NCBI GenBank assembly: GCA_963928595.1
Contig: CAWVFK010000043.1
Location: 1,995 to 65,994 of the forward strand
Reading direction: 5' to 3'
Length of the DNA stretch: 64,000 bases
Source: Candidatus Coprosoma sp.
GTDB taxonomy: Bacteria > Bacillota_I > Bacilli_A > RF39 > UBA660
The notes under the pieces are model-generated. The model had not been told where the DNA came from. It made no database searches and saw nothing but the letters and a program-made list of their open reading frames with translations. Below are positions 42,521 through 64,000 of this stretch, piece by piece. The translations under genes and the position numbers were made by a program. How positions within the stretch are numbered: the stretch's first letter is position 1; each line of letters opens with the position of its first letter.

Positions 42521-44128
42521 ATGATTTTAAGAAAACCTTATGCGTTTTTCATAAAGTATTTTAAGCTTTTTCATGCTATAATTGCAGTTTTGGTGGCCTT
42601 TTTGTTATACCGTTCTTTTACAGTTTACAATTTCTTTAAAGCTTATGTAGTTAATTACAGTTCAGCTTTAAATGAATTATCGCCAAGTACTCTTATGAAT
42701 ATGTATAGTCTTATAATGGTTTTAGGAATAATCATTTTGATAATTGTTTTATTGTCGGTAATGATTTATAAAAAGAAACCTAAAGCATTATATATATTTA
42801 GTTTAATTGTTTATATTGGTGTTATTGTTTTGTATGGGATTACTTATCCAATATTAAGAGATATTAGTGTTTCTATTTTGGATATTCGAGTTTCTAGTGC
42901 TTTACGTGATTTCTTTATGATTGCGGTAGCTTTACAATTTGTTACTTTGGTTTGGTATATTGTTAGGGCGACAGGGTTTGATATTAAACAATTTGATTTT
43001 GGAACTGATTTACAAAAGTTAGATATTAATGAGAAAGATAGTGAAGAGATCGAAGTTGCTTTGGAATTTGATCAGAATAAAGTACATAGACAAATTAGAT
43101 ATAAGATTAGACAGCTTAAGTATGTGTATGGTGAAAATAAATTTATAATTAATACTGTTGGGATTATATTGGCGGTTATATTAGTATTTACAATTTATTT
43201 AAATATAGGAGTTTATACTGCTTCATACGATCAGGGATCTTCTTTTTCAGCTAGTGGAGTGGTGATGAATGTCAGAGATACTTATTTGACACAAACAGAT
43301 CCTTTTGGCAAATCTTTGACTAATGATATGATTGTTGTTGTAAAGTTGGATATAAAAAGCAATGGCGGTGTAAATACAACGTTAAATACTGGTCTTACAA
43401 CTCTTAGAGTTGACAATCAATCTTATAGTCAAGATGTAAATTATGCGAAAGAGTTATATGATTTGGGAACCGCATATACTAGTCAACAATTGGGTGATGA
43501 ATTTAAAAGTTATATTTTGACCTTCATTGTTCCTAAAGATGATGCGAAAAAGAAAATGGTCTTAAAGTTTAACGATAATGTTAGTTATGTCAAGGGTGAG
43601 ATTGGAGCTAAAAGTATTATGGTTACTTTGAAACCAACCGATTTAACTCAAAAACAAGATGAACATTCAGTTAAGCTTGGAGAAGAAGAAAATTTTGAAG
43701 ATAGCGTTTTAGGAAGTTCGGTTTTCAAAATAAATAGTTATGAAATAAACGACAAGTTTAAATTAAACTATAAATATTGCTACGGAACTGATAAATGCAT
43801 TGACTCAAGTGAGTATTTAACATCAACAGCAACTGGTAATTATTTTAAGACTTTAATGAAAGTTGATGCTGATTTTAGTGTTGATAGTAATGTTAATAGT
43901 ACTCAAATCACTTCATTTAATGATTTTTTAAACACATTTGCGACAATCAATTATAAAATTGGTAGTGGATGGATATCTAAGAGAATTAGTACTCAAAGTA
44001 TAAAACCAAAGGTTAGTAATGATTTTTCATATTATTATATTGAGGTTCCGAGTGATGTGAAGAATGCTAGTGAAATATATTTAACATTTAATATTCGTAA
44101 TCAAGTTTATAATTATGCTTTAAAATGA
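42521..44128 (+). CDS. Hypothetical polytopic membrane protein with large C-terminal extracytoplasmic domain
   Basis: 535 aa. About 4 TM segments lie in the first 150 aa, a further TM near residue 215, then a ~300-aa hydrophilic domain. No motif recognised. Confidence 0.6.
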   Translation: MILRKPYAFFIKYFKLFHAIIAVLVAFLLYRSFTVYNFFKAYVVNYSSALNELSPSTLMNMYSLIMVLGIIILIIVLLSVMIYKKKPKALYIFSLIVYIGVIVLYGITYPILRDISVSILDIRVSSALRDFFMIAVALQFVTLVWYIVRATGFDIKQFDFGTDLQKLDINEKDSEEIEVALEFDQNKVHRQIRYKIRQLKYVYGENKFIINTVGIILAVILVFTIYLNIGVYTASYDQGSSFSASGVVMNVRDTYLTQTDPFGKSLTNDMIVVVKLDIKSNGGVNTTLNTGLTTLRVDNQSYSQDVNYAKELYDLGTAYTSQQLGDEFKSYILTFIVPKDDAKKKMVLKFNDNVSYVKGEIGAKSIMVTLKPTDLTQKQDEHSVKLGEEENFEDSVLGSSVFKINSYEINDKFKLNYKYCYGTDKCIDSSEYLTSTATGNYFKTLMKVDADFSVDSNVNSTQITSFNDFLNTFATINYKIGSGWISKRISTQSIKPKVSNDFSYYYIEVPSDVKNASEIYLTFNIRNQVYNYALK

Positions 44129-44138
44129 TAAAAGATTA

Positions 44139-44147
44139 TGCTATAAT
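44139..44147 (+). promoter_or_regulatory. Extended -10 promoter element ahead of the pilus operon
   Basis: TGCTATAAT (TGn + TATAAT), 18 nt upstream of the 44165 ATG. RBS AAGGAGAGG at 44149-44157. Confidence 0.45.
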
Positions 44148-44164
44148 AAAGGAGAGGATACGCT

Positions 44165-44806
44165 ATGAGGTTTAAACGAATTAAATATTTACTTTTTACT
44201 TTAATATGCATGTGCGTTACTCCTTTAATAACACATGCAGAATGTGATTATCAAAGGCAGGCAGAATTGTCTCGATTAGCTAGTAATGTTCAATTCAGTT
44301 ATAATTATCAGGTTGTTGATTATTATCCGCAATTTATGATTACCGCTACAAATTTGACGGACGATATTTATATGGTGGATAATTATGGTACTATGTTTTC
44401 TGGCAAATCAGAATTTACTGCTTCATATAAAGCGGGGAATACAATAACTTATACTTTTTACTCTAATGATGCTAATTGCCGTGGCGAAGAAATAAGTAAG
44501 CGTTATGTAAATCTGCCAGAATTTAATCCTCGTTATAATTCTGATGAATGTAAATTATATCCAAATTTTTCACTTTGTCAAATGTGGACTGATACATCTT
44601 TTTCAGCTGAACAATTTGAAAGTAGGTTGGAAGAATATAAGCAAGAAAGAAGTAAAAAATACGTAGTTAATGAAGAAGGAAATTCTATTTGGAATGTTAT
44701 TTTAACCTTTTTGTCTAATAATATTTTAGGATTTGTGATGGTTGGAATTGTAATTTTAATCCTTATTGGAATGTTTGTTTATAATAAATTGAAATATAGA
44801 AGGTGA
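44165..44806 (+). CDS. Secreted Cys-containing protein with C-terminal membrane anchor, first gene of the pilus operon
   Basis: 213 aa. Signal peptide ends ...PLITHA/ECDYQ. The ectodomain has 4 Cys. C-terminal TM GFVMVGIVILILIGMFVY is followed by KLKYRR. Confidence 0.6.
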   Translation: MRFKRIKYLLFTLICMCVTPLITHAECDYQRQAELSRLASNVQFSYNYQVVDYYPQFMITATNLTDDIYMVDNYGTMFSGKSEFTASYKAGNTITYTFYSNDANCRGEEISKRYVNLPEFNPRYNSDECKLYPNFSLCQMWTDTSFSAEQFESRLEEYKQERSKKYVVNEEGNSIWNVILTFLSNNILGFVMVGIVILILIGMFVYNKLKYRR

Positions 44807-44810
44807 TTGT

Positions 44811-47624
44811 ATGAAAATATTTAAATACTTATTTACAACGGTAATGATATTTTGTATATATTTAACTTCAGTATATGCGGATGTTACTATTGGTGCTGGA
44901 CCGGGAGGTGGATATAATGCGAGTGGCAATTGGACAAGATACCACAATAACCCGTTTGGAACATCAAGGCAATATCGTGGTTATAAAATTCGTTTGATTT
45001 ACTATGATGGTTCTGATCCGAGTGGAGTGCGTGGAGAAAGCGCGTGGCAGGAGATAACGAGTTTTGATGTTGTTATAAGTGATTTGAATGTGGCTGGTAC
45101 TAACTACACTAATTTAGTGCGTTTACATGGACAAAATAATACGAAACTTGGTTTAATCGACAACAATGCAAAACCTAATTTATATTGGCTTGGTCAGCAA
45201 GTGGCAAATGTTGAAAATGGAACGACTAATGAGGAACGTATAAAAAGTGAAATTGAAGCTAATGATTCTGCTCGTTTACGAGCTATTATTAGAGAACTTG
45301 GTGTCGACGAATCTACGATGACCAAAGAGAGCGTCGAAGAGATGGGATGGAATCATAAAGGATATCGTTTTATTGCCGAGAAATTAATAATAATGACTGA
45401 TGTCGGATGGTTTTTTGCGAATTCAAGAAAAGAATTAGCACAAGTAATTCCTAATGACAGATCTAGTAATGTAACGAGTTTTTATGAAGGACTTTGGGAA
45501 CTTAGAACATTAGCAAATGGTTCGGGAGTGTTTCCTGGGGATATTAGAACGACTAAAGATGATATTAATGTAAGATATAATGGAGCTAATTGGAATTATA
45601 ACAATTTTAGAAATTATAATAGTGGTATTGGACTTGGTATTATAAGTATTGGTCATAATCCATATGCAGAAAAAGATTATACTATTGATGCAGCTTGTGT
45701 TAACTGTAATTCTGATGATGATGAAAATAAAGCATATATTATTCAGGATACAAATGACTGGGATGCTATTATGTCTAGTAGGCAATCTAGTAATAAAAAT
45801 GTCACTAGCTATTATAATAAAGGTAATGGAGTATATTGCCGAGAAGAATATTGGGTTTATTTACCTAATGTAAATAATACGATTTATGTAGATCCTGGAA
45901 GATATTTTACACTTAATCCTTCGGCAGCAGATTTAAGTGCAATGGATTCTTCTTCGGCAATTCCTAATTTTAAACCAATAAAGGTTACGAAGAAACGGGA
46001 GTGTCGAGTTAATACGGAAGAAAATGGTTCAAACGCATCTACGGTACTAGATACATTTAGAAGAAATTCTGAATATGATTTTAAAGGTAAAACTGGTACT
46101 GTAAAATTTAAATATAATGAGGTTTATGATGAAAGTCGTTATAACATGAAGGAACCAGAAAAATTAAGTGTTTATGATGAGCCTAATAATTATAATTATT
46201 CAATAAATGGTAATTCACTTACTATGGAAGTAACTCGTTATTATACTTTACCAGATAATTATTATCAGTATATTAGGAAACAAGATGGACTTTCTATGAA
46301 GACAAAACCTTCTTCTAATATAAATCATTATTTAAATGTTGGTATTCCTAATTTGCCGTTATCATTTAATAATAAGGGTGGTTCAACAAATGGAGAAGTT
46401 TCTAAAGCAGCTGATATTCAATTTTCATTTGAACTTCCCGGTAAAAATAATGATACAGATCAATATTCTAAATTGTATCTTGCTTATATACAAAATAATT
46501 CTTATTTAGCAACTGATAATGAAAGTGGTAATATTTATAATAGATATTTAACTGGACAAATGGAAGCTGGAGATCAAGATTTATTAAATAAAAGTGCTTG
46601 TGCAAAAATGTTTGGTGTAAATACTTCTGGTTTTTCTACTTGTGTTAGTCAAAGAAAAAATAATGCAATTGGGGAAGGATCAAATAGTTGTATTACTAAA
46701 AATAATATATCATCTTCTAGTACTACTTCTGGTTATTCTTGCATGGTACTAACTTCAGAACCGGATGATCCTAATGATCCTCCTGGCACGCCAGGGAAAT
46801 GTAAAACAGAAGAAGATGCAAAAAGATTAGGACGTGATTGGAATCCATATAGTCAAAGTTGTTGCCCGGTTGGAACAACTTACAATCCATCACTCGGAAA
46901 ATGTGAGCCGGATGATGACACTAATACTTGTCATATTAAAAATGGCAAATATTATGATTTTGATGGTAAGGAAATAACTAAGGAAGAATACGATAGAATT
47001 TGTCCTGATCCAGGTGATGGTGATACTTGTCGAATCGAGAATGGTAAATATTATGATTTTAATGGTAATGAGATAACCAAAGAGGAATTTGATAAAATTT
47101 GCCCTGGCTATGTTCCACCGGTTTGTCCAGAAGATGAATGTCCGTATGGTTGCTGTCCAAGTGGTGAATGTGCACCAATGCCTGATGGAACTTGTCCAGG
47201 AACTGGTGGTATAGATGTTATTTATAGAACAATTGATTTGGAAAATCCATTTCCTGGTCAAAATGCTGAACAAAGAAATACTGGGGCTAACTGGTGTAGC
47301 TATAATATAAAAACTCAACAAATTGATTGTAAGTATAATAATCAAACTGTTAAAAATTATGTAACTAGAGAAAGAGGCGGTACGACTAATGGTGGTAAAG
47401 TTTATCGCGAGAATCACGTTTTATATGAAGTAACATTAGATACTAAGACAATTAATGCAATTAGAGCTTATAATAATAAGAATAAGTATGATGATTGGGA
47501 TTTAAATTGCTTGGATAATGGAAAAGCATGTATTAGTGATTTCTTGAGAAGTCAAGTCGATACTACTGGTGAATGTGCAAATGCAAGTAAGTCAACTTTT
47601 TATACTTGTGATGAAGATGTTTAG
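44811..47624 (+). CDS. Large secreted Cys-rich protein (candidate adhesin or pilus-associated)
   Basis: 937 aa with signal-peptide-like N-terminus (MKIFKYLFTTVMIFCIYLTSVYA/DV). Contains a 33-aa tandem repeat and a Cys/Pro-rich region (CPEDECPYGCCPSGECAPMPDGTCPG). Lies 4 nt after the previous gene. Confidence 0.65.
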   Translation: MKIFKYLFTTVMIFCIYLTSVYADVTIGAGPGGGYNASGNWTRYHNNPFGTSRQYRGYKIRLIYYDGSDPSGVRGESAWQEITSFDVVISDLNVAGTNYTNLVRLHGQNNTKLGLIDNNAKPNLYWLGQQVANVENGTTNEERIKSEIEANDSARLRAIIRELGVDESTMTKESVEEMGWNHKGYRFIAEKLIIMTDVGWFFANSRKELAQVIPNDRSSNVTSFYEGLWELRTLANGSGVFPGDIRTTKDDINVRYNGANWNYNNFRNYNSGIGLGIISIGHNPYAEKDYTIDAACVNCNSDDDENKAYIIQDTNDWDAIMSSRQSSNKNVTSYYNKGNGVYCREEYWVYLPNVNNTIYVDPGRYFTLNPSAADLSAMDSSSAIPNFKPIKVTKKRECRVNTEENGSNASTVLDTFRRNSEYDFKGKTGTVKFKYNEVYDESRYNMKEPEKLSVYDEPNNYNYSINGNSLTMEVTRYYTLPDNYYQYIRKQDGLSMKTKPSSNINHYLNVGIPNLPLSFNNKGGSTNGEVSKAADIQFSFELPGKNNDTDQYSKLYLAYIQNNSYLATDNESGNIYNRYLTGQMEAGDQDLLNKSACAKMFGVNTSGFSTCVSQRKNNAIGEGSNSCITKNNISSSSTTSGYSCMVLTSEPDDPNDPPGTPGKCKTEEDAKRLGRDWNPYSQSCCPVGTTYNPSLGKCEPDDDTNTCHIKNGKYYDFDGKEITKEEYDRICPDPGDGDTCRIENGKYYDFNGNEITKEEFDKICPGYVPPVCPEDECPYGCCPSGECAPMPDGTCPGTGGIDVIYRTIDLENPFPGQNAEQRNTGANWCSYNIKTQQIDCKYNNQTVKNYVTRERGGTTNGGKVYRENHVLYEVTLDTKTINAIRAYNNKNKYDDWDLNCLDNGKACISDFLRSQVDTTGECANASKSTFYTCDEDV
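46926..47123 (+). repeat. Direct tandem repeat, 2 x 99 nt (33 aa), inside the 937-aa ORF
   Basis: Unit 1 begins ACTTGTCATATTAAAAATGGCAAATATTATGATTTTGATGG at 46926. Unit 2 begins ACTTGTCGAATCGAGAATGGTAAATATTATGATTTTAATGG at 47025. The peptide units are TCHIKNGKYYDFDGKEITKEEYDRICP and TCRIENGKYYDFNGNEITKEEFDKICP. Confidence 0.85.
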
Positions 47625-47637: not shown

Positions 47638-48039
47638 ATGAAAGAGTCTTTTTGGGGTATATTTGTTGTGTTTCTTGGTGTTTTATCAATATTCTTTATT
47701 GTTTTATTTCAAAATTTGACTAATACTGACGAGCACAATTCACAATTATTAAAAGAAGTTACGGAAGCGTCAATGTGGGATGCGTTTGATTACGCATCTT
47801 ACAGAACTACTGGTGAAATTCGAATAGATAGAGAAAAATTTGTTGAAAATTTTATTAGAAGATATGCAGAAAGTGCTAGTAGATCAAGACAATACACAAT
47901 TAAATTTTACGATATTAACGAGAAACCACCAAAAGTAAGCTTGAGTGTACAAAGCGGTGTGGTAGGCGTTGGAGGCAATACCGAGATGACATTTGATTTG
48001 CAAAATAGAATAGATGCAATTTTGGAAGTGCCTTATTAG
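47638..48039 (+). CDS. Pilin-like/pseudopilin candidate (N-terminal MKES..G + hydrophobic helix)
   Basis: 133 aa starting MKESFWG-IFVVFLGVLSIFFIVLF. It shares the M-K/R-E-S/A...G leader pattern with ORFs at 52244, 52527 and 53021. Confidence 0.5.
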   Translation: MKESFWGIFVVFLGVLSIFFIVLFQNLTNTDEHNSQLLKEVTEASMWDAFDYASYRTTGEIRIDREKFVENFIRRYAESASRSRQYTIKFYDINEKPPKVSLSVQSGVVGVGGNTEMTFDLQNRIDAILEVPY

Positions 48040-49126: not shown

Positions 49127-50470
49127 ATGAATAATATGTTTGACCAAATAGATTTCGGTCCGATGAAACCTTATTTGGAAGATGATGATGTAACTGATAT
49201 TTCTTATGATAATGGTGGACAGATACATTTAAAAACATTATCTAAAGGAATATTTAGAATTGAAAATCCAGCTATTAATAATGCATTTATGGAAAAGCTA
49301 GCGTTTCAATGCTCTAATGTTATGGGTAAAACCTTTAACATGGCTCATCCATTTTTGGATGCTGAAAGTGCAGAGTTACGTTTAGCTTTCATCCATGACT
49401 CTGTTGCACAAAACGGCATTGCATGTGTGGTTCGTAAGACACCAGCTAAGATTCGTTTGCAAAAAGAGAAAATAGTTGCTGATAAATATGTTGAACTTGA
49501 TATTATTGATTTTTTAGAACAATGTGTTTTAGGACATTGTAATATGATAGTTAGTGGTGAAACTGGTTCTGGTAAAACAGAGTTAGTTAAATATTTGGCT
49601 TCAAAAATTGCTGAAAATGAGAAAGTTATTACAATTGAAGATACTTTGGAACTTCACTTGGATAAGATCTTTCCACATCGTGATATTGTTTCTTTAAAAA
49701 CAAATAATATTGCATCTTATACTGATATTTTGGAAGCTTGTATGAGACAGAACCCTAAGTGGATATTGCTTTCTGAGGTTCGTAGTGCAGAAGCTGTACT
49801 GGCAGTTCGTAATTCAATTTCATCTGGACACTATATTTTATCTACTATTCATGCTGATAAGGCAGTATCTATTCCAAATCGTATGTATAGTTTGCTTGAA
49901 ACAAATCAAGATTTGGATCAGTTTATGAGCTCAATTTGTAGATATATTCAGATTGGTATATATGTTAGAGGATATCAAGATAAAGCAACAAAACATTTTA
50001 AACGTGAGATTGCTGAGGTTACAGAATTTTATGTAACTAGTGATACCAATGAAGCCCGTCATAACATTATTTATCGAAAAGGTGCTGATGGAAAGGTTAT
50101 TAGAAATAATCCATCTCCTTATTTAATTGATTATTTGGAGGTTCAAGGAGTATTTTTACCAAAAGAACTTCAGAATATGGCTGGGGAGCCTTATACTGAA
50201 AATGATTCTATGAAAAGTAATGCACTGATTAAAGATGATAATAATGATCAATCACAGTCTGCTGCGATAATAGATAATAATTTGATGAATGACTTTACTC
50301 AAGAGAATGCTCAATCACAAACTGCAAATATTGCAGATGTTAGTTTGACTAATAATATTAATGTTAATAATCAAACTCCAACTAATCCTATGACAAATTT
50401 AAGTACTACTACGATAAGTCCTTCATCTGGAGTTACTACAGAAGATAAAACTGAGAATTTATTTGAATAA
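49127..50470 (+). CDS. tadA: Type II/IV secretion ATPase, TadA/CpaF (VirB11-related) family, with N/Q/T-rich C-terminal tail
   Basis: VTDISYDNGGQI, RLAFIH....NGIACVVRK, Walker A SGETGSGKTE, TIEDTLEL, Walker B-like KWILLSEVRSAEA, His box STIHA. The last ~90 aa are low complexity. Confidence 0.8.
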   Translation: MNNMFDQIDFGPMKPYLEDDDVTDISYDNGGQIHLKTLSKGIFRIENPAINNAFMEKLAFQCSNVMGKTFNMAHPFLDAESAELRLAFIHDSVAQNGIACVVRKTPAKIRLQKEKIVADKYVELDIIDFLEQCVLGHCNMIVSGETGSGKTELVKYLASKIAENEKVITIEDTLELHLDKIFPHRDIVSLKTNNIASYTDILEACMRQNPKWILLSEVRSAEAVLAVRNSISSGHYILSTIHADKAVSIPNRMYSLLETNQDLDQFMSSICRYIQIGIYVRGYQDKATKHFKREIAEVTEFYVTSDTNEARHNIIYRKGADGKVIRNNPSPYLIDYLEVQGVFLPKELQNMAGEPYTENDSMKSNALIKDDNNDQSQSAAIIDNNLMNDFTQENAQSQTANIADVSLTNNINVNNQTPTNPMTNLSTTTISPSSGVTTEDKTENLFE

Positions 50471-50484: not shown

Positions 50485-51390
50485 ATGACATTTTTGGTAT
50501 TTATAATAGTACTGGCTATTGCGATATTCATTGTTTTATATCGTAATAACAGTAATAGTAATAATGTTTATAAATTTATAAACAAAAAAATTGGTGTAAT
50601 TTATGATAAGTATGCTCCTTATTCATTTAAAGTGGTTAGGGAAAAGGTTAAGGAGTTAGGACAGGAATATACTCCAAGACAATATGCAATTCAAATTGTC
50701 GTGTTTGCTGTTAGTTCAGCGGTTATTACTTATTTGTATTTTTACAATATTGTCGTTTCTTTGATATATTCAGCATTATCTGTTTTAGTTATTCCTTATT
50801 TAACTTATTTAAGATGTAAAAGGTTATATAGTGAATTTATTTTTGAACAAGTTCAGGTATATACGACAAATACGATTATGGAGTTTGCAACAACTCAATC
50901 ATTTGTTAAAGCTTTAGAAGGTGTATATGCTTCTAATGTACTTGAAGATCCAGTTAAATCAGATGTTAAGATGATGATTGATATGGCATATGAGAATGGT
51001 ACTATTGATCAATCTCTTAATTATATGAATTCTAAATATGATTTTTACATTGTTAGAAATATGCATCAACTATTTTTACAAATTACTAATGAAGGTTCAA
51101 GGGATTCTGGTGAATCACTTGAAAACATGAGCCAAGATATAGATATGCTAGTTGAATCGGTTTATCGTGATAGAATTGATAGAGCTTCATTCCATAAAAA
51201 GTTTTTACAATTTGGTATTATCCTTTATTTGATGGTCATGCTTATACAATTTATGCTTGGTATGGAAACTTATAATCAGATGTTAGCAGACTGGTGGGTA
51301 CAACTTTTATTACACGGTATTATTTGGTTAAATACGTACTTTATCTTGTCTGGTGAAAAATATTATAATGAAGATGTGGGGGCGGAATAA
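50485..51390 (+). CDS. TadB-like inner-membrane platform protein (T2SF-like)
   Basis: 301 aa with the topology TM, cytoplasmic segment, 2 TM, ~130-aa helical domain, TM. Position immediately after the ATPase is typical of tadB. Confidence 0.55.
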   Translation: MTFLVFIIVLAIAIFIVLYRNNSNSNNVYKFINKKIGVIYDKYAPYSFKVVREKVKELGQEYTPRQYAIQIVVFAVSSAVITYLYFYNIVVSLIYSALSVLVIPYLTYLRCKRLYSEFIFEQVQVYTTNTIMEFATTQSFVKALEGVYASNVLEDPVKSDVKMMIDMAYENGTIDQSLNYMNSKYDFYIVRNMHQLFLQITNEGSRDSGESLENMSQDIDMLVESVYRDRIDRASFHKKFLQFGIILYLMVMLIQFMLGMETYNQMLADWWVQLLLHGIIWLNTYFILSGEKYYNEDVGAE

Positions 51391-52480: not shown

Positions 52481-52493
52481 TTGCTTGCTTTAA

Positions 52494-54541: not shown

Positions 54542-54565
54542 ATTTGTAAAACTCTTTTATTTCTA

Positions 54566-54594: not shown

Positions 54595-54624
54595 TATAGT
54601 ATGAGTTAAGAGGAGGTTAATTTT

Positions 54625-55489: not shown

Positions 55490-55521
55490 GATTATGTATT
55501 ATATTCTAAGTGGGTGACTTT

Positions 55522-56531: not shown

Positions 56532-58724
56532 ATGTGGGATGTATTAACTGATTTGGTAAGATCTTTAATGTTTTTCTTTGATAATATCATATATGGATTA
56601 ATTCCAACTATTTATAAATTGTTTGTTTATCTATCTGAGGTCGATCTTTTTACTGGTAATACTCAAATTAATAATTTAGTAAATCATATATACGCATTGT
56701 TAGGCATATTTATGCTTTTTAAAGTTAGTTTTTCACTTTTACAATATATTGTTGACCCAAATTCATTTAGAGATAGTTCAAAAGGTATGGGAAAATTAAT
56801 TACTAATGTTTTAATATCATTAGTTTTACTTGTTAGTGTTCCTTCAATATTTAGTCTACTTATGGAGTTTCAGACTACTATTGTTCAAAGTAATGCAATT
56901 GGGAGATTGATTTTAGGAACTAATACCACTGGAAACGGCAGTGAGGCTGTAGATGGTGATTATATATCGGTAGAAGGGGTCAATACTATGGCTAAAGATT
57001 TACAATTTATGATTTATGGTGCTTTTTATTCTATTGATTCCAAGTTTATTGATCCAAATTCATTTGAATATGCTAATGAAAATATGAAAATATTAAGTAA
57101 TTGTGAAGGAACAACGGGTATTTTAGGCTCAACAGATATGGCTATAGCTAATAATGGACAATGTTTAGATCAATTGGCTAAAGAAATGGAAAAACAGGAT
57201 GATGTATCTGCAAATGGCGTTAATTTATATAGTTTTTATAAATATGTAAATGAACAAGGGGAAGTAGTGGATGAACGCGATTTTAATGATTTTGGTAGAT
57301 TGTTGACATGGAAACAAGATGGTGTGTATGTTATTAATTATTTACCATTAATTTCGGCTGCTGCTGGTATTTATATTGTGTTCTTATTAATTAGTTTCTC
57401 TGTTGATGTTGCTGTACGTGCTATAAAATTATGCTTTTTACAAATGGTTGCACCTATTGCAATTGTTTCATATGTTGATCCTAAAGAATCTGTAAGCAAT
57501 GGTAAATTACATAATTGGGTTGTAGAATGTTCAAAAACGTATTTTTCTTTATTTTTAAGACTGGCGACTATTTTTTTAGTGATGTTTGTAATTTCTGCAG
57601 TTGCATCTACTGTAATTTCGAGTGGTAGTAATATTGAAGGATTGTTACAAGAAGATCCTGGATATAATATTTGGATATATTTATTCTTAGTATTAGGTGC
57701 ATTTATGTTTGCAAAGCAAGTACCAAATATAATAGAGTCTATTTTTGGAATTAAGGGGTCTGGAGATCTTAATTTAAATCCATTTAAAAATGCTGGTCTT
57801 GCAACTTTAACTGGTGGTGTTGTTGGCGCTGGTATTGGTGGAGTGGCAAGTTCTATTGCTTCTGCAAAAACAGCTTCAATTATGGGTGATAATGCATTTA
57901 AAGCTGGTCTAGGTGGTTTTGCAAAAGGAACGGTAAGTGGTGCATTTAAAGGTAGAAACTGGGATGGTAAAAATGTATCTTCATTAATTTCTACACCGCT
58001 CAGTGTTTCTGGTGATATAGCTAGATATCAAGCTGCTAAGCATGGTACGAGATTAGTTGATCGTGCTGGAGCAATGATAAATGAAGCAATAGGAGCACCG
58101 CAAAAAGCTGATATAATGAAAAAACGAATAGAAAATGCTGGTAGATTTACTAAATTTTATGATGCTGTTGATGGTGGTATGGCTGCTAAAATGGTTAAAC
58201 TAAAGGATATTAGTCAGTTTACTAGTAGTGATCAGGCTAAGAATAAAGCTAATTTTGATAAAATTAATAATTATAATTATCTGAAAGCACAATTAGATGC
58301 GGCAATACAACGTGGTGATGCTGCGACTGCTGCTAGTATTCAAAATGGTTCATATTCAGATTCTGTGATTACTTCAAAAGCCAAATTTAGTGATTATGAA
58401 GATGATGCAAAACAAACTATGTATGATATGATCATTAATAATGAAGTTGCTGATGATGCTGAAATTCAGTCTATTAGGTCTAATATTGATGCTATGAAGA
58501 GAGTGGGTAAAGAAAATGCATCTACTCCTGAGTTTGCATCTGTTGATGATAGTATTTATGTTAATGATGCATCAGGCAATGCTATGTCCAAGATGAAGAA
58601 GGCGTCTAAAGCTGTTAATACTGCTAAGACTATAACTGAAAACAGTGATGAATATGAAAATGCTCAAGCTGCTGCTGACGCAATTAAATCTAATCGTATG
58701 TTTGAACATTTTACAAAAAAATAA
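56532..58724 (+). CDS. VirB6/TrbL-like polytopic T4SS channel protein with long C-terminal hydrophilic domain
   Basis: 730 aa with at least 7 TM segments, one large extracytoplasmic loop, a Gly-rich TM (GLATLTGGVVGAGIGGVASSIASA) and a ~260-aa soluble tail. The position between pilin-like and VirB3/VirB4-like genes fits this call. Confidence 0.6.
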   Translation: MWDVLTDLVRSLMFFFDNIIYGLIPTIYKLFVYLSEVDLFTGNTQINNLVNHIYALLGIFMLFKVSFSLLQYIVDPNSFRDSSKGMGKLITNVLISLVLLVSVPSIFSLLMEFQTTIVQSNAIGRLILGTNTTGNGSEAVDGDYISVEGVNTMAKDLQFMIYGAFYSIDSKFIDPNSFEYANENMKILSNCEGTTGILGSTDMAIANNGQCLDQLAKEMEKQDDVSANGVNLYSFYKYVNEQGEVVDERDFNDFGRLLTWKQDGVYVINYLPLISAAAGIYIVFLLISFSVDVAVRAIKLCFLQMVAPIAIVSYVDPKESVSNGKLHNWVVECSKTYFSLFLRLATIFLVMFVISAVASTVISSGSNIEGLLQEDPGYNIWIYLFLVLGAFMFAKQVPNIIESIFGIKGSGDLNLNPFKNAGLATLTGGVVGAGIGGVASSIASAKTASIMGDNAFKAGLGGFAKGTVSGAFKGRNWDGKNVSSLISTPLSVSGDIARYQAAKHGTRLVDRAGAMINEAIGAPQKADIMKKRIENAGRFTKFYDAVDGGMAAKMVKLKDISQFTSSDQAKNKANFDKINNYNYLKAQLDAAIQRGDAATAASIQNGSYSDSVITSKAKFSDYEDDAKQTMYDMIINNEVADDAEIQSIRSNIDAMKRVGKENASTPEFASVDDSIYVNDASGNAMSKMKKASKAVNTAKTITENSDEYENAQAAADAIKSNRMFEHFTKK

Positions 58725-58738: not shown

Positions 58739-59065
58739 ATGCAATTCTTAATTCCGGCGAATACTAAAAAATCAATGTTAATATTTGGAGCATTTACAAC
58801 ATTTGATTTAATTTTGTTTGGTGTAGGTATTGGGGCTACAATAATAATGTTATTGATAATAGCTCCTAATTCCTTGTTGACAGCAGTTATTGATTTATTG
58901 CCGGCTTTAATATGTGGTTTCTTGGTGCTTCCAATACCAAATTACCATAACATTAGAGTTGTAATTCAGGAGTTATACAGATTTTATACTACCAGACAAA
59001 GGTTTATATGGAAAGGATGGTGTGTGAAGGATGAATACGGAGACTCGCGGCAAATACACAAATGA
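58739..59065 (+). CDS. VirB3/PrgI-like small T4SS membrane protein
   Basis: 108 aa with two TM helices after a short basic N-terminus (NTKKSMLIFGAFTTFDLILFGVGIG...). It lies immediately upstream of VirB4, as expected for VirB3 analogues. Confidence 0.55.
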   Translation: MQFLIPANTKKSMLIFGAFTTFDLILFGVGIGATIIMLLIIAPNSLLTAVIDLLPALICGFLVLPIPNYHNIRVVIQELYRFYTTRQRFIWKGWCVKDEYGDSRQIHK

Positions 59066-59579
59066 TTTTGTACCAATAAAATCAATTACTAATGGAGTTA
59101 TTATTTGTAATAATAACGAAAAGGTTACAGGAGTAAAGATTTCTCCTAGAAATATCTTTATCTTGGAACCTGATATGCAAAATATGATTATAACAAATTT
59201 AAAAAATGTTTATAATCTTATTGATTATGAATTTTGGATTATTGTTGCTGATAGGCCAGTGGATATTACGGCTTATTTATCTAGATTACAATTACTTTAT
59301 AATTCACAGACTAATCCTATTAAAAGAAAATTAATATTAGAAGACATTAATAAAGCAAATATGTTTACAACTACTATGAATGTTGTTGATACTGAGTATT
59401 ATTTACTTTTTAAAGAAAAAGATATGGATAAAATTCAAAAGAAGATTAGAAGTTTAATTCAGGCTTTTGCGAATGCGGGACTTAGTGTTACGCAAACTTC
59501 TAATGATGATTTAAGAATTATTTTAGATAATTTCTTAAATGGTGGAATGACTACGACGTTTGGGACGGTGATGAGTTAG
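59031..59579 (+). CDS. VirB4-family ATPase, N-terminal domain encoded as a separate ORF
   Basis: 182 aa. DFVPIKSITNGVIICNNNEKVTGVKISPRNIF.LEPDMQ...I.NL matches the N-terminal region of Firmicutes VirB4-like conjugal ATPases. It overlaps the VirB3-like ORF by 35 nt and ends 1 nt before the next ATG. Confidence 0.6.
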   Translation: MNTETRGKYTNDFVPIKSITNGVIICNNNEKVTGVKISPRNIFILEPDMQNMIITNLKNVYNLIDYEFWIIVADRPVDITAYLSRLQLLYNSQTNPIKRKLILEDINKANMFTTTMNVVDTEYYLLFKEKDMDKIQKKIRSLIQAFANAGLSVTQTSNDDLRIILDNFLNGGMTTTFGTVMS

Positions 59580-59580: not shown

Positions 59581-61365
59581 ATGGATATTAAGACACAAAT
59601 TGCTCCTAAAGGATTAGAGTTTAAACCTAGTAGTTTTGTAGTAAGCGATAAATATTGTTCTATTTTAACGGCAATATCTTATCCAAAGATGATTACACCA
59701 GGTTTTTTAGCTAATTTGACAAGTATGCCTGGTATCAAAATGGCTATTAAACATATTCCACTTCCTTTTAGTGTTATTCAGAAAATGGTAAATAAAGAAA
59801 TCGCTGATTTGAAAACTCGTTATCAAGAAGAAAATGATTTAACTATGCAAGAAAAACTTCGTCAAGATTATGAATCTTTAGAGGAATTTATTAAACAATT
59901 GGCAGCTAGTCAAGCAAAAATATATGATTTTCAATTGCATTTGATGGTAACAGCTGATTCGGCTGATGAACTTACAGCAAAAAAATTACAATTAAAAAGC
60001 TTTTTAGAAGCTATGGATATGAGAGCTATACCTTTAAGATTCGAACAAGAAAAAGTACTTAAAAGTATGCTTCCAATATTTCCTAAACAGGATATTGAAG
60101 AAAGAATTGGAACACCAATTCCATCTCCAACGCTTGCCGCAATGTATCCTTATGTTTTTGATAGTATTAAAGATCCAGGATTATCAACTTTGCTTGGTGT
60201 TGATTTCTCTGGTGGTGTTGTATTATTTAATCAATTTTTATATCAAATTCAAAAAGAACATAACAGAAATAACGCTAATATGATCATTTTAGGTACTTCT
60301 GGTAGTGGTAAGTCAACAGCTGCTAAATTACTTTTAAGAAGTCATATTAGAAATAATTATAAAATGGTCTTAATCGATCCAGAAGGTGAACTTGAAGAGA
60401 TGACAAGACTTTATGGTGGTGATTTCATCGATTTAGGTAAAGGTGGAGAATTTGGTATGATTAATCCACTTGAAATAATTATGGATGCTGATGACGAAGA
60501 GATTAAACAAGGTATGGGATATGCAGTACTTACTAGATCATTACAAACCGTAAAAGCTTTTATGAAATATTATGATCCGTCAATTACTGAAGATGTAATT
60601 AATATTTTTAGTGAAATGGTTCAAGAAACTTATAAGCGTTTTGGTATTGATTTTAATACTGATTTTACAAAGTTTACTTCTAGAGATTATCCAACTTTTA
60701 GAGATGTTTATGCAACAGTTAAAGGAAAAATTACAGCGATGCCTGAACAAAATAAAGAAAGAGATATATTGGAGCAATTAGAATTAAAACTTCGTCCATT
60801 AATTAGAGAACTTAGATTTTATTTTGATGGTACAACGACAATTTCTCCAAAAAGTAATTTTATAGTATTTAATATTAGAGAGTTAATGAATACAGATACA
60901 AATATTAGAAATGCATTATTCTTTAATGTTTTGAAATATGCTTGGAGTTTGACTTTGGATCCTAATATTAATACTATATTGACAGTAGATGAGGCGCATG
61001 TACTTTTATCTGGTAATAATACTTTAGGGGCTGATTTCTTGGCACAAGTTCAAAGACGTGCTCGTAAATATAATACCGGTACGATTATAATTACTCAACA
61101 GCCTACAGATTTTAGTGATCCTAGTGTTATTACTCAAGGAAAAGCTATATTTGATAATGCTTCTTATTATTTGATAATGGGACTTAGAAAACAAGCTGTT
61201 GAAGATTTGGCTAAGTTAATAGATTTAAATGATAATGAAAAAGAGAGTATAAAAGGGTACAATCAAGGTGAAGCTTTGTTTGTATGTGGTAGTAAACGAA
61301 TGAGAATTAATATTATGGTTACTCAACAAGAATTGGATTCATTTGGTTCTGGTGGAGGACTGTAA
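59581..61365 (+). CDS. virB4: VirB4-family conjugal transfer ATPase, core and C-terminal part
   Basis: 594 aa with IAPKGLEF...YPKMITPGFLANL, Walker A GTSGSGKST, Walker B ILTVDEAHVLL and IIITQQPTDF. Confidence 0.85.
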   Translation: MDIKTQIAPKGLEFKPSSFVVSDKYCSILTAISYPKMITPGFLANLTSMPGIKMAIKHIPLPFSVIQKMVNKEIADLKTRYQEENDLTMQEKLRQDYESLEEFIKQLAASQAKIYDFQLHLMVTADSADELTAKKLQLKSFLEAMDMRAIPLRFEQEKVLKSMLPIFPKQDIEERIGTPIPSPTLAAMYPYVFDSIKDPGLSTLLGVDFSGGVVLFNQFLYQIQKEHNRNNANMIILGTSGSGKSTAAKLLLRSHIRNNYKMVLIDPEGELEEMTRLYGGDFIDLGKGGEFGMINPLEIIMDADDEEIKQGMGYAVLTRSLQTVKAFMKYYDPSITEDVINIFSEMVQETYKRFGIDFNTDFTKFTSRDYPTFRDVYATVKGKITAMPEQNKERDILEQLELKLRPLIRELRFYFDGTTTISPKSNFIVFNIRELMNTDTNIRNALFFNVLKYAWSLTLDPNINTILTVDEAHVLLSGNNTLGADFLAQVQRRARKYNTGTIIITQQPTDFSDPSVITQGKAIFDNASYYLIMGLRKQAVEDLAKLIDLNDNEKESIKGYNQGEALFVCGSKRMRINIMVTQQELDSFGSGGGL

Positions 61366-61388: not shown

Positions 61389-62096
61389 ATGGCTTTACCT
61401 GCAGTGTTACTTAAAGCGAAGAATGCAATTTCAAAAGGTACTCAAGCTGCAAAAACAGCAAAAGCGGTAAAGTCTGCCACCTCTAATTCAAATGAAGAAG
61501 AAGTAAAATCTTTTCTTGGAGTATTTAAAATACCAATACTTTTGTCAGCTCCTATTATAATATTTATTTTAATTGTTTTTATTATGGTTATAGCTATTCC
61601 TCAAATACTTTATGGTGCTGAATATGGATATGGTGATAGTAATGGTAATAGTAGTGGCAGTATTTATACCGGAGATATTGCATATTTGCAATGGGCTATA
61701 GATATTGCAAATGATGATACACATGGTTATAGCCAATGTGCTAGAACTGGTCCAGATTATGATTGTTCTAGTTTAGTATATTATTCTTTATTAAATACTG
61801 GATATACGCAAGAACAATTAGGTAGTTATCCTTTTAGTACTAGTACTGAACCTAGAATTTTATCTAGTGTCGGTTTTGAAAGACATATGTATGCTGAAAG
61901 TGAATTACAAGCTGGTGATATATTATGGAGAGATGGCCATACAGGAATATATGCTGGCGATGGACAAGTTGTTCAAGCTTCTAGTAGCCGAGAAGGAAAT
62001 GGTCTTTGTGGTAGGACTGGCGATCAAACCGGTACCGAAGTATGGGTAAGTCAGAATACTGGTAATTGGACTTATTATTATCGAAAAGAAGGATGA
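61389..62096 (+). CDS. Membrane-anchored NlpC/P60-type peptidoglycan hydrolase (VirB1 functional analogue)
   Basis: 235 aa with an N-terminal TM segment. The catalytic Cys lies in YDCSSLVYYSL and the His in GHTGIYAGDGQVVQAS. Confidence 0.75.
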   Translation: MALPAVLLKAKNAISKGTQAAKTAKAVKSATSNSNEEEVKSFLGVFKIPILLSAPIIIFILIVFIMVIAIPQILYGAEYGYGDSNGNSSGSIYTGDIAYLQWAIDIANDDTHGYSQCARTGPDYDCSSLVYYSLLNTGYTQEQLGSYPFSTSTEPRILSSVGFERHMYAESELQAGDILWRDGHTGIYAGDGQVVQASSSREGNGLCGRTGDQTGTEVWVSQNTGNWTYYYRKEG

Positions 62097-62101
62097 TATT
62101 T

Positions 62102-62374
62102 ATGAAAAAAAAATTTATTTTATTCATCTTGTGTTTCTTTTTAGTTACTGGTTGTGATGTTAAATATGATTTAACTATTGATAATGATACTTTTGATGAA
62201 ACAGTAACGATGTCTTTTTTAAAGAGTCAAACTACTTATGACGATGTTTCTATATATTTGGAAAATAAAACACCGATTTCGTATAATTCTTCAGGAATTT
62301 ATTATGATTCAAAAATAGAAGAAAGTGATAATTATTACGATTTGATTTATAATTATAAACATGATTTTAATTAA
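62102..62374 (+). CDS. Lipoprotein, N-terminal part (ends at an in-frame TAA)
   Basis: MKKKFILFILCFFLVTGC has a lipobox (LVTGC). The ORF stops at TAA 62372-62374, and the same frame reopens immediately. Confidence 0.55.
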   Translation: MKKKFILFILCFFLVTGCDVKYDLTIDNDTFDETVTMSFLKSQTTYDDVSIYLENKTPISYNSSGIYYDSKIEESDNYYDLIYNYKHDFN

Positions 62375-62392
62375 TTTAGACAAAGTTATTTT

Positions 62393-62776
62393 GTGACAAA
62401 TTGTTATCCTAATTTTAGTATTCAAAGTAATGATAAACAAATTATTTTGTCTAGTGGTAGTCAATTTATGTGTTTTGCTGGTGATGATGGTCTTAGAGCA
62501 GATAGTGTAGAGATAAATATTACAACTAAGTTAAAAGTTTTAGATAATAATGCTGATGAGGTTAATGGTAACACTTATACTTGGAGTATAGATAATAGTA
62601 ATTATGAAAATAAACCGATTGAGATGACACTTGAAAAAGCTTTTCAAATAGAAGATGTAGTTCCTAAAAGCGAAGCATCATATTTGACATTTATTGTTGT
62701 AGTATCTGTTGTATTAGTGGCATTGGTTATAGTTGTTTTTGTTAAATTTAAAGCAAAAAAAAATAATAATATTTGA
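62393..62776 (+). CDS. Hypothetical protein with C-terminal TM anchor; same frame as the preceding lipoprotein ORF
   Basis: 127 aa from a GTG start with no obvious RBS. It ends with the TM segment LTFIVVVSVVLVALVIVVFV followed by KFKAKKNNNI. It may be the continuation of 62102-62374. Confidence 0.4.
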   Translation: MTNCYPNFSIQSNDKQIILSSGSQFMCFAGDDGLRADSVEINITTKLKVLDNNADEVNGNTYTWSIDNSNYENKPIEMTLEKAFQIEDVVPKSEASYLTFIVVVSVVLVALVIVVFVKFKAKKNNNI

Positions 62777-62791
62777 TTTGGTGGTGGTTAG

Positions 62792-64000
62792 ATGAAAAAG
62801 ATTTTTAATTTTGTTAAGAAAAGAATAAAAGAAATTTCTTTTTTGTCTATAATTTTATTGGTTATATTTGTAAATATGAGTAGTGTATTTGCAGATTATC
62901 TTGATGAAGAAACAGTTGGTAATAGGAAAGAGAGACAACTTTTTGAAAAAATAGAACTTATCCACAGTATTTTTCCTAAGCAAACCGATGAGACGGCACT
63001 TTATGCCACTTTAGTACATAGAGGTACTTTAACTGATTATATTGAAGAGAGTTATGATCCTGATTTTGATTCTGATGAATATAAAGATACTTGGAGTCAA
63101 CTTTCTACAGATATTAATAATTTAGTAAATAATGTTGGTCAGTCTATAACAACGCTTGCTGATACGTTTGTTTCAGGAGTAGAATGTTTAATTTCTGGTG
63201 GAACTGATGAAGATGGTGAACAATATGATACGAATTGTGTTTTAGAAAAAGTTATTGAAAAATATGCTGATAGATTAAGTGATACTGGAGATAGTACTTT
63301 AGAAAATAATATAAAAAAACCACAAGCAGTTGATTTGTTAGTAGCTGCTACTATTGTAATGCTCGATTCAAGTGGATGGACTGGGACTTATAGTGATGAG
63401 AATTATAAACAGGCTTTGGCAGGTGATGGACTTGTCGGCAATATGTTTGATAAAAACGATCCATTACAAAACTTCGCAGCTGTGGCAATGAATGGAATTT
63501 TTTGTACAGTTGGTACAGTGGCAGATATGTCGTTATCATGGTTTAATCCTGGATTTTCAATAAATGAAAATGGTTTTGGGGTTGAAAAAAATGCTATGGC
63601 GGGAAAACTTAGTCGTTATTATACAATGGCTAATATTTGTCAGAACGGCTTTATTGGAGGAACTTATGATCATGTAAAAAATCCTGATTTAAGTACAGAA
63701 GAGGGAAAAGAACAATATCAAGGTAAGAAAGATATTGTGGCTGAACAGATAGTTGGATTAGCGGAACGTTTTAGGCAAATGTCTGCTTCTGAAGGTGATT
63801 TGTGTGAATATGGTGGAAATACTCAGGCTTCTATTTTTATGAATATGACAACTGAAGAATATATTAATACGATGGGTCCTATTGCACAAGCAGATTATAG
63901 TAGAACTGGAATATTTGCTTCTGTTACTTTGGCTCAATCAATTATTGAAAGTGGTTGGGGTAAATCTGGTCTTACTCAAAAAGCTAATAATATGTTTGGT
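62792..64000 (+). CDS. Large secreted cell-wall hydrolase with glucosaminidase (FlgJ/LytD-type) domain, 3'-truncated by the window
   Basis: ATG at 62792, frame open to the window end (403 codons; absent from the ORF track because there is no stop). Signal peptide ...MSSVFA/DY. The glucosaminidase motif FASVTLAQSIIESGWGKSGLTQKANNMFG starts near 63915. Confidence 0.7.
   Translation, partial: MKKIFNFVKKRIKEISFLSIILLVIFVNMSSVFADYLDEETVGNRKERQLFEKIELIHSIFPKQTDETALYATLVHRGTLTDYIEESYDPDFDSDEYKDTWSQLSTDINNLVNNVGQSITTLADTFVSGVECLISGGTDEDGEQYDTNCVLEKVIEKYADRLSDTGDSTLENNIKKPQAVDLLVAATIVMLDSSGWTGTYSDENYKQALAGDGLVGNMFDKNDPLQNFAAVAMNGIFCTVGTVADMSLSWFNPGFSINENGFGVEKNAMAGKLSRYYTMANICQNGFIGGTYDHVKNPDLSTEEGKEQYQGKKDIVAEQIVGLAERFRQMSASEGDLCEYGGNTQASIFMNMTTEEYINTMGPIAQADYSRTGIFASVTLAQSIIESGWGKSGLTQKANNMFG

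Follow-up and report, generated by a model that had tools for sequence, protein, structure and literature searches.

A Tad-like module joined to a Gram-positive-type secretion system in the chromosome of an RF39 bacterium, probably a fixed mating-type machine

What is the role of a long gene array in which Tad-like pilus genes lie directly in front of genes of a Gram-positive-type type IV secretion system (T4SS), and is such an array a mobile island or a fixed part of the genome? The question is raised by position 42521 onwards of a 64,000-nucleotide stretch of DNA from Candidatus Coprosoma sp. (assembly GCA_963928595.1, contig CAWVFK010000043.1), which is called the window in the following. 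A previous sequence-only reading proposed a pilus-assisted conjugation or secretion island beside a tRNA gene. In our analysis the array is best explained as a vertically inherited composite machine of the conjugation type for contact and translocation, homologous to the mating apparatus of Gram-positive plasmids, no longer mobile and likely moving DNA; we hold this explanation with some confidence. Since the same pairing of modules is found on Gram-positive conjugative plasmids, the locus is probably a fixed, domesticated mating-type machine rather than a mobile island.

The genes were compared with Pfam, NCBIfam and PDB profiles, complemented by hhalign, by AF2 models searched with Foldseek and by dN/dS on orthologues. 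The map of open reading frames (ORFs) shows that all sizeable ORFs from 42521 to the window end lie on the plus strand with short gaps or none, in agreement with the more than 21 kb of same-strand genes previously seen 3' of tRNA-Leu(CAA). The first part of the array contains the following genes (lengths in amino acids, aa).

42521–44128, + strand, 535-aa protein that opens the conserved unit, with five predicted membrane segments and a large extracytoplasmic domain
44165–44806, + strand, 213-aa secreted protein with 6 Cys and a C-terminal membrane anchor
44811–47624, + strand, 937-aa secreted Cys-rich protein with 29 Cys
47638–48039, + strand, DUF5411 protein, minor pilin-like (PF17424, 1e-56), with the leader MKESFWG followed by a hydrophobic helix
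48069–49115, + strand, CpaB/RcpC-like protein with an N-terminal anchor and SAF and RcpC domains
49127–50470, + strand, CpaF/TadA-type secretion ATPase (T2SSE, 1e-27)
50485–51390, + strand, 301-aa polytopic membrane protein, platform-like, in the TadB position
51390–52184, + strand, 264-aa polytopic membrane protein, platform-like, in the TadC position
52244–52480, + strand, 78-aa major pilin candidate with the N-terminus MKEAAGEANLTV, a hydrophobic helix and a Cys-containing tail
52527–53024 and 53021–53506, + strand, two overlapping minor pilin-like genes of 165 and 161 aa
53521–54531, + strand, 336-aa conserved cytoplasmic protein, called TadZ-like in the sequence-only reading

The T4SS module follows after a gap of 93 nucleotides (54532–54624).

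54625–54975, 55011–55403 and 55510–56517, + strand, three VirB2/TrbC-like proteins of 116, 130 and 335 aa, each with a two-helix membrane hairpin
56532–58724, + strand, 730-aa VirB6/TrbL-like channel protein with a variable extracellular or C-terminal part
58739–59065, + strand, 108-aa VirB3/PrgI-like protein with two membrane helices
59031–59579 and 59581–61365, + strand, split VirB4, an N-terminal domain of 182 aa and an ATPase of 594 aa
61389–62096, + strand, NlpC/P60 (C40) wall hydrolase with an N-terminal membrane anchor
62066–62776, + strand, lipoprotein-like gene with an in-frame TAA at 62372–62374, read as ORFs 62066–62374 and 62393–62776
62792–64000, + strand, secreted multi-domain wall hydrolase (glucosaminidase), cut by the window end

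In orthologous loci the genes past the window end are a lipoprotein-like gene, multi-domain wall hydrolases, a 789-aa coupling protein, a rhodanese and RmuC. The coupling protein in one of these related loci, L031, is of the VirD4 type (T4SS-DNA_transf 1e-56, plus TraG-D_C and TrwB_AAD_bind). The apparent lack of a VirD4-like coupling protein in the previous reading is thus an artefact of the window end, as the protein is present just beyond it in orthologous loci.

Do the two modules belong together? A VirB4 relative is present in at least 594 genomes, when one genome per species is scanned with a profile of a six-sequence alignment (a 21-sequence VirB4 alignment was too diverse for the collection scan). 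The best 80 of these relatives are 75–98% identical and come from genomes labelled uncultured Bacilli, Tenericutes, Mollicutes or Acholeplasma sp. CAG:878; two of them are circular chromosomes, 1.34 and 1.54 Mb in size. The labels are in keeping with the GTDB order RF39, in which genomes so labelled have been reported to group. From the 535-aa protein to VirB4, the genes stand in one and the same order in every long contig examined. In 55 of 59 VirB4-centred loci the T4SS genes have Tad-like genes immediately upstream, and in the reciprocal test T4SS genes lie downstream in 26 of 32 ATPase-centred metagenome loci. The coupling protein follows within 10 kb downstream in 54 of the 56 VirB4-centred loci with enough flank, and RmuC is found downstream in 41. 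In addition, a homologue of the 535-aa protein is present in 31 of 38 ATPase-centred loci having sufficient upstream flank, and its orthologues stand at the start of the array in loci L004–L009 and L097 with 46–68% identity.

Four signals accompany these genes, two at the pilin gene and two between the modules.

52188–52216, + strand, promoter-like site before the pilin gene, TAGTCA-17-TATAAT preceded by TG (extended -10)
52483–52500, + strand, hairpin with a T-run after the pilin gene, conserved in close relatives only
54516–54535 plus a T-run, + strand, hairpin terminator match between the modules
54566–54594, + strand, TTGACA-17-TATATT promoter for the T4SS genes

The TGnTATAAT element recurs 5' of the pilin gene in most related loci. 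Over the whole region, matches to the promoter consensus are no commoner than in shuffled sequence. The intermodule promoter is nevertheless accepted because TTGAC[AT]-N16-18-TAnnnT is found after the 336-aa gene in 48 of 61 related loci, compared with 1.9% of background windows. Both internal promoters are conserved, and the T4SS genes have a predicted promoter of their own. The 93-nucleotide gap with its terminator and promoter is found just where the sequence-only reading had placed it, and the small pilin gene with a promoter and a terminator of its own is likewise recovered, as a 78-aa pilin-like ORF with an extended -10 site and a hairpin.

Among relatives at dS of about 0.6–1.2, dN/dS is 0.03–0.15 for the ATPase, the platform-position proteins, the DUF5411 protein, the 336-aa protein, the VirB3-like protein and VirB4, and 0.4–0.5 for the 937-aa, 213-aa and VirB6-like proteins. 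These ratios indicate strong purifying selection on both modules and fast evolution of the parts predicted to be exposed. Taken with the co-occurrence of the modules, this supports the view, already proposed in the sequence-only reading, that they behave as one conserved unit, usually joined though separable.

A different view would be that an adhesion pilus and a separate T4SS stand side by side as two independent systems. In favour of it, the two modules have separate promoters and do not adjoin in 4 of 59 VirB4-centred and 6 of 32 ATPase-centred loci, and Tad-like clusters without a T4SS occur in other uncultured gut Firmicutes (PMC11680825, PMC9523054). However, the adjacency persists over 75–98% VirB4 identity, and the pairing has arisen or been kept on plasmids of Bacillus, Enterococcus, Listeria, Sulfobacillus and Mycoplasmatota. 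Furthermore, the ATPase block of the pLS20 family sits inside a single conjugation operon. We therefore consider two unrelated neighbours very unlikely and keep the reading of a single composite machine.

The loci with separated modules have their own surroundings. In L174 (1–21026; also L146, L167–L169 and L173) the Tad-like module is followed by genes for DivIVA, an HTH protein, PgsA, RecA and an Abi protein, with no T4SS, and in this sublineage the pilin gene is preceded by an inserted HAD hydrolase gene of opposite orientation. In L018 (1–10000; also L025, L027 and L076) metabolic-looking genes, not Tad-like genes, precede the T4SS module; two of these upstream genes match in length (392 and 478 aa) those at 27054–29669 of the window. 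L018 and L025 are also without a coupling protein within 10 kb downstream. A long-read contig, L098 (2600–15500), contains the same locus, and the genes for the glycosylase and for the 963-aa, DUF5411, CpaB-like and 334-aa proteins are among many that are fragmented there. This fragmentation probably reflects indel errors of the assembly, not decay.

Is the locus a mobile island? The proposed anchor of such an island is a tRNA gene.

41230–41315, tRNA-Leu(CAA), about 1.2 kb upstream of the array

An integrative conjugative element (ICE), or a recent remnant of one, beside this tRNA gene is what the sequence-only reading suggested. The short distance to the tRNA, the conjugative-type gene content and the left flank, which varies among relatives, are in line with it: the array is preceded by the glycosylase gene here and in L004 and L097, and by ScpA/ScpB genes and a repeat protein gene in L007. 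The right flank, by contrast, is the same in dozens of species, with coupling protein, rhodanese and RmuC in a row. Two ordinary housekeeping genes, a flavodoxin-like ORF and a deoxyinosine glycosylase, separate the tRNA from the array. The direct repeat of the tRNA-Leu 3' end that had been proposed as a border was looked for, and no second copy was found. No integrase was found within 10 kb on either side of the locus in the flanks examined, and megablast of the 21.5-kb region against plasmid and phage collections gave no near-identical DNA. The missing relaxase, integrase and prepilin peptidase of the previous reading are confirmed as absent from the array and the flanks examined. The array matches the remainder of the window in G+C, and over at least 594 species genomes strong purifying selection acts on its core genes. 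With no relaxase, integrase or tRNA repeat found in the stretches searched, the locus is not an integrative element at tRNA-Leu, and that explanation now seems extremely improbable. The locus appears instead to be vertically inherited and selected, not a recent insertion.

The window itself is part of the chromosome of a small-genome lineage of Bacilli (RF39), because the upstream 42 kb codes for housekeeping proteins such as PcrA, LigA, DnaK, PepF, pyruvate formate-lyase (PFL), alanine–tRNA ligase and RecA, and because G+C (about 30% window-wide, with no break at the array) and skew are uniform. Over the 64 kb the GC skew is strongly positive, at 0.02–0.39 and mostly above 0.2, and nearly all genes lie on the plus strand, in line with a long piece of leading strand. 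The bacteria of RF39 live in the gut, are uncultured and have reduced genomes with many auxotrophies and missing biosynthetic pathways (PMC6784871). Genomes of the lineage measure about 1.3–1.5 Mb, and the complete locus, about 27 kb, takes up roughly 2% of the genome. An alternative genetic code was considered and rejected, as table 11 reads the ORFs through and UGA is reported to serve as a stop codon in RF39. To be noted, the alanine–tRNA ligase at 32146–33894 is, with 582 aa, of the short form (NF002436) and ends in an AlaX-like editing domain.

Where do the relatives of such a fixed locus occur? Looking up exact proteins gave no record for two small downstream proteins and short contigs only for VirB4. 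When VirB4 proteins are clustered at 50% identity, only three clusters are more than 40% identical to the query and the others reach at most 35%. The nearest outgroup with a split VirB4 (35%) is L091 (1–14959), a conjugative element with a sortase, a SpaA pilin, SSB, a hydrolase, Toprim and a serine recombinase. In this element the sortase and the SpaA-type pilin take the place of the Tad-like module, which suggests that adhesion modules may be interchangeable on one T4SS backbone. The ATPase is about 30% identical to plasmid proteins annotated as 'CpaF/VirB11 family' in Enterococcus, Bacillus, Listeria, Paenibacillus and Paraclostridium, and VirB4 is about 29% identical to proteins of Bacillus thuringiensis plasmids and of a Mycoplasmatota plasmid.

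The most complete counterpart is the B. thuringiensis plasmid pBMB67. Its transfer region encodes a relaxase, VirD4, TrbL, PrgI, a 227-aa protein and VirB4, and about 8 kb further a SAF protein, an AAA_31 ATPase, a T2SS/T4P ATPase (type II secretion/type IV pilus), two membrane proteins, a small protein and a DUF4320 protein. Profiles of the T4SS parts of our locus match this plasmid at the VirB4 N-terminal domain (3e-22), the VirB4 ATPase (2e-91), the coupling protein (1e-87) and the NlpC/P60 hydrolase (2e-8). In module 1, the CpaB-like profile matches the SAF-domain protein (1e-32), the DUF5411 profile the gene 5' of the SAF gene (6e-5), the 301-aa profile the gene 3' of the ATPase (1e-10) and the 264-aa profile a further pBMB67 protein (2e-12). 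The 161-aa minor pilin-like gene has a weak profile link to the DUF4320 protein (1.5e-3). The ATPase profile matches the ATPases of a pLS20-type plasmid, pZB18 and pBMB67 (1e-38 to 1e-53; pBMB67 3e-38), and iterated profiles tie the 264-aa family to proteins of pBMB67, pZB18, a pLS20-type plasmid (at the position of gene 39) and a Listeria plasmid. On the Mycoplasmatota plasmid (zrk4), VirB4 is followed by SAF, AAA and CpaF proteins, a 295-aa protein, a T2SSF protein (Pfam 5e-8) and small proteins.

A common order is seen in pZB18, in a pLS20-type B. velezensis plasmid and in Listeria pLIS21: an adhesin, a small anchored protein, the ATPase, two membrane proteins and small proteins, then, as far as the stretch covered extends, VirB6, VirB3, VirB4 and a hydrolase. 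The annotation of pZB18 also includes a coupling protein and a VirB2-like protein, and that of pLIS21 a coupling protein. The published tables of pLS20 (genes 34–54) and pAW63 (CDS 26–9) show the same order, with the ATPase named VirB11 and its neighbours unassigned (PMC8557374, PMC1196294). Our locus thus resembles the transfer regions of the pLS20 family, of pAW63/pXO2-type plasmids and of pBMB67, pZB18 and pLIS21-type plasmids in gene order and in profile-level homology for ten components. In addition, pBMB67 shares the SAF/CpaB-like gene and the split VirB4. Two differences are clear. Those plasmids are mobile and have a relaxase (MOBP or MobQ) with replication and partition genes, whereas the locus here is chromosomal and fixed with no relaxase nearby; and the coupling protein, which precedes VirB6 in the plasmids, is at the far end here.

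Likeness to other systems is more partial. The best NCBIfam match of VirB4 is to the family of Mycoplasma ICEs (NF045975, Mbov_0397), and the VirB6-like protein also matches such a family (NF045889, Mbov_0396). However, all these family scores are under the cut-offs, VirB4 is split here, and the Mycoplasma elements are mobile; we know of no Tad-like module in them. The IncI plasmid R64 uses a type IVb thin pilus to assist a separate conjugative channel. Our locus is comparable to it in workings, as a type IV filament aiding a conjugative channel, but R64 is Gram-negative and its components are unrelated except for the ATPase superfamily. The plasmids pL15 and pY0017 of Sulfobacillus thermotolerans have a conjugation backbone with homologues of both T4SS and type II secretion system (T2SS) proteins, including MinD-like, CpaF/TadA-like and TadB/TadC-like proteins, a relaxase, a TraG coupling protein, VirB4 and a lytic transglycosylase (PMC6803676). 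Compared by description, these two differ from the locus here in being plasmid-borne and in having a relaxase.

How Tad-like is module 1? The ATPase is its best-defined part. Its nearest PDB relatives are CpaF (3e-18, over residues 6–257 with the N-terminal domain included), then archaeal GspE2/FlaI and then VirB11 (7e-14), so that by sequence it is closer to CpaF than to VirB11, as the sequence-only reading had assigned it; all its NCBIfam scores are under equivalog cut-offs. Relatives of the ATPase number thousands, and the best 120 are 68–94% identical, some of them on contigs of 1.3–1.5 Mb. The C-terminus (50150–50470) is a tail of low complexity, with about 100 residues among which N, Q, T and S are abundant, and the orthologues range from 332 to 607 aa, mostly due to this tail. 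The CpaB-like protein is a borderline case that agrees with its first assignment: RcpC scores 28.8 bits, equal to the Pfam cut-off, SAF 6e-4 and TIGR03177 3e-11, the last under its cut-off, and a search against PDB profiles found nothing.

In each of the four pilin-like proteins a short M-K/R-E-x-x-G leader precedes a hydrophobic helix. In the major pilin candidate the first 12 residues are almost invariant among relatives (MKEAAGEAN[LM]TV) and the tail is variable. The leaders of the 165- and 161-aa proteins are MRESIG and MKEAIA, and together with the DUF5411 protein this pair is consistent with the three further pilin-like proteins named previously. DUF5411 proteins are reported from predicted type IV pilus- or T2SS-like operons of Clostridia, including Roseburia, Ruminococcus and Eubacterium (PMC9523054).

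The two secreted Cys-rich proteins of the previous reading are present with 29 and 6 Cys. Both vary strongly, with orthologue identities of 27–50% (dN/dS 0.50) for the 937-aa protein and 35–44% (dN/dS 0.41) for the 213-aa protein. The 937-aa protein has no family match, and its gene occupies the position of the large surface adhesin genes in pLS20-type plasmids, pZB18 and pAW63. It is a candidate for an adhesin or for a protein at the tip of the fibre. Its residues 711–765 (46941–47105) lie in a stretch rich in Cys and Pro and hold two 22-residue repeats, starting at residues 711 and 744 and each bounded by Cys, with the pattern NGKYYDF(D/N)G(K/N)EITKEE(Y/F)D(R/K)ICP. The 535-aa protein has no Pfam match; it was considered as a hidden prepilin peptidase and rejected, as it gives no A24 match.

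The two platform-position proteins share one topology and look paralogous. They were previously called T2SF-like, which we could not confirm: neither matches T2SSF (PF00482) even at E up to 5, nor any PDB profile. Their position and topology would fit platform proteins, and hhalign of their families against plasmid proteins in the TadB and TadC positions gave weak or null results. The 301-aa protein is 72–95% conserved with dN/dS of 0.03–0.07, one relative at 96% identity being labelled Firmicutes bacterium CAG:822. Its homologue search gave only proteins at least 88% identical, its AF2 model (pLDDT 47) was discarded, and hhalign aligns its family with the TadB-position protein of the zrk4 plasmid at a probability of 39% (E 3e-4). 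The alignment of the 264-aa protein is shallow, as a broader search still gave same-lineage proteins only. Foldseek with its AF2 model (pLDDT 64) places cytoplasmic domains of T2SS protein F (GspF) at ranks 1, 2, 4, 5 and 27, with E of about 0.7–4 and none significant, so a GspF-like structure of this protein is suggestive only. The TadZ-like label of the 336-aa protein is not upheld either. This protein is well conserved (orthologue identity 47–84%, dN/dS about 0.1), but none of 13 orthologues matches AAA_31, CbiA, ParA or another family, no PDB profile matches, and hhalign gives a probability below 1% against the AAA_31 proteins of pBMB67 and the zrk4 plasmid.

Like Tad/Flp systems, the module thus has a CpaF-type ATPase, a CpaB-like protein, two proteins in platform position, a small pilin with its own promoter and minor pilin-like proteins, and it has a DUF5411 protein; this comparison includes the Tad versions of Gram-positive bacteria and of uncultured Clostridia (TANB77; DUF5411 operons). 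Unlike them, it has no recognisable Flp motif, no T2SSF or TadZ/CpaE match and no in-locus prepilin peptidase, and it is joined to a T4SS. For these reasons we liken module 1 in its workings to Tad or type IV filament systems and do not file it as a Tad member.

Is module 2 a T4SS? The ATPase at 59581–61365 is confirmed as VirB4, and the sequence-only reading missed that the protein is split, its N-terminal domain being the separate ORF at 59031–59579. The two parts align to residues 100–276 (1.5e-15) and 295–891 (2.6e-103) of NF045975, the VirB4 family of Mycoplasma ICEs, and VirB4 also matches P-loop_TraG (1e-13), AAA_10 (3e-12) and NF045971 (1e-47), as expected of Gram-positive-type conjugative T4SSs with a VirB4 of the CD1110/Mbov_0397 kind. 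The same split is found in pBMB67, the zrk4 plasmid and L091. The other channel components agree with their first assignments at lower scores. The three VirB2-like proteins score 18–21 bits on T4SS_pilin, each under the Pfam cut-off of 26.6, yet among 22 orthologues 12 have it as their top family, the best with 4e-5. The VirB6-like protein matches NF045890 (pLS20_p028) with 6e-10, NF045889 (Mbov_0396) with 6e-5 and TrbL_4 with 1e-4, all under library thresholds, and profiles link it to annotated plasmid genes; its orthologue identity is 34–44% with dN/dS of about 0.4. The VirB3-like protein reaches only 0.076 on Pfam PrgI, while its profile matches the PrgI- or DUF5592-annotated genes of the loci L091, L094, L095 and L092, plasmid genes among them. 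No VirB8-like (NTF2-fold) candidate was recognised from sequence in module 2.

Both hydrolases named previously pass their family cut-offs, the first with NLPC_P60 (1e-6), Amidase_5 (5e-7) and ELLD (1e-6), the second with Glucosaminidase (4.5e-11). In L031 the orthologue of the glucosaminidase protein has 703 aa and a C39-like domain. The lipoprotein-like gene is an unbroken 231-aa ORF in L031, and its TAA here may stem from a real nonsense mutation or from an error in the assembly.

Based on these components, we propose the following mechanism. The first sub-assembly, driven by the ATPase, would build a short fibre like a type IV filament through the wall. This fibre would present the variable Cys-rich proteins and make or tighten contact with another cell. 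The second sub-assembly, with the VirB2-, VirB6- and VirB3-like proteins, VirB4 and the coupling protein, would form a translocation channel, helped by the wall hydrolases. Through it the machine would move a macromolecule, most likely DNA, into the contacted cell. The composition of the locus, its plasmid homology, the linkage of the modules, the selection on them and the internal promoters were observed in the genes, and from these the fibre, contact and transfer steps are predicted.

Could the machine work in the other direction, as a device for DNA uptake? The Helicobacter ComB T4SS and the Tad-like pili needed for transformation of Micrococcus are precedents for competence, and for an auxotrophic organism with a reduced genome uptake could also serve to scavenge nutrients. 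The conservation of the locus across the lineage at a fixed chromosomal position is typical of competence genes, no relaxase is nearby, and many biosynthetic pathways are missing in RF39 (PMC6784871). However, a VirD4-type coupling protein is present and conserved, and therefore export of DNA or protein is favoured over uptake alone. To our knowledge ComB is without such a protein. Moreover, all detectable relatives outside the lineage sit in conjugative plasmids or elements, and the locus has no ComEA- or ComEC-like gene. Uptake is thus an unlikely role for the machine.

Another possibility is that the machine delivers proteins on contact or harvests resources, by injecting effectors into bacteria or host cells or by attaching to them. 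Epibiotic Saccharibacteria, for which a T4SS and type IV pili are reported, and bacteria-killing T4SSs are parallels. A small genome with many auxotrophies, fast-evolving surface proteins and several wall hydrolase domains (C39-like, NlpC/P60 and glucosaminidase) would suit this way of life, and a coupling protein without a nearby relaxase suits protein substrates. Yet wall hydrolases and variable adhesins are also standard in Gram-positive conjugation systems, no effector or immunity gene was recognised, and the nearest relatives are DNA-transfer systems. We give this role a small chance and return to a conjugation-type machine that likely moves DNA.

Several observations weigh against this explanation. 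No transfer substrate or DNA-processing gene was identified in the locus or within 10 kb in relatives, and no relaxase was found in the array, within 10 kb of the locus in relatives (for L031, the 10 kb downstream of VirB4) or in the window, whose upstream 42 kb was scanned in part. The pilin candidate has no Flp_Fap match and no G/xxxxEY motif, the EY pair being missing. No gene of the array or of the examined flanks matches a prepilin peptidase (TadV/CpaA, peptidase A24). The platform-position proteins fail the T2SSF hidden Markov model and their structural support is not significant, and the 336-aa protein is not assignable to any family. The modules are apart in about 10–20% of loci and must therefore be separable. 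Finally, the fibre, the cell contact and the transfer are predicted from genes alone.

Which part of this is new? The kind of machine is known, and the pairing of modules has already been noted on plasmids. The claim that the combination was uncharacterised in Firmicutes is thus overstated, as a CpaF/VirB11 ATPase beside a T4SS is annotated on pLS20, pAW63, pZB18 and Listeria plasmids, and homologues of T4SS and T2SS proteins in one conjugation backbone were already described for the Sulfobacillus plasmids (PMC6803676). None of the plasmid versions has been characterised functionally as a pilus. What is new is the chromosomal fixation across a whole lineage of small genomes, the larger set of Tad-like features, which includes CpaB, DUF5411 and a separate promoter for the pilin gene, and the reading of the unassigned pLS20 and pAW63 genes. 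An incomplete literature search, covering RF39 pili or T4SSs and Tad-like modules with a Gram-positive T4SS, found no description of this RF39 locus.

As a tentative extension, which we hold as possible rather than likely, RF39-like bacteria may have domesticated a whole conjugation apparatus with its type-IV-filament module as a core organelle, either to exchange chromosomal DNA without a relaxase, in the manner of Mycoplasma chromosomal transfer, or for contact-dependent reliance on neighbours. By the same extension, the block of 'VirB11 plus unknown genes' in pLS20, pAW63 and pHT-type plasmids might be a cryptic Tad-like pilus. Gram-positive elements are stated to form no conjugative pili (PMC8557374). 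The homology found here ties the unassigned pLS20 genes 36–41 and pAW63 CDS 19–23 to a CpaF-driven, pilin-containing module, and therefore the textbook view of pilus-less Gram-positive conjugation becomes directly testable in a tractable system. If the extension is true, some Gram-positive conjugation systems make a mating fibre after all. The locus would also exemplify a mobile-element machine turned into a fixed chromosomal organelle. Since about 2% of the genome is spent on it under strong purifying selection, the machine is probably central to how these auxotrophic, highly prevalent gut organisms live or exchange genes.

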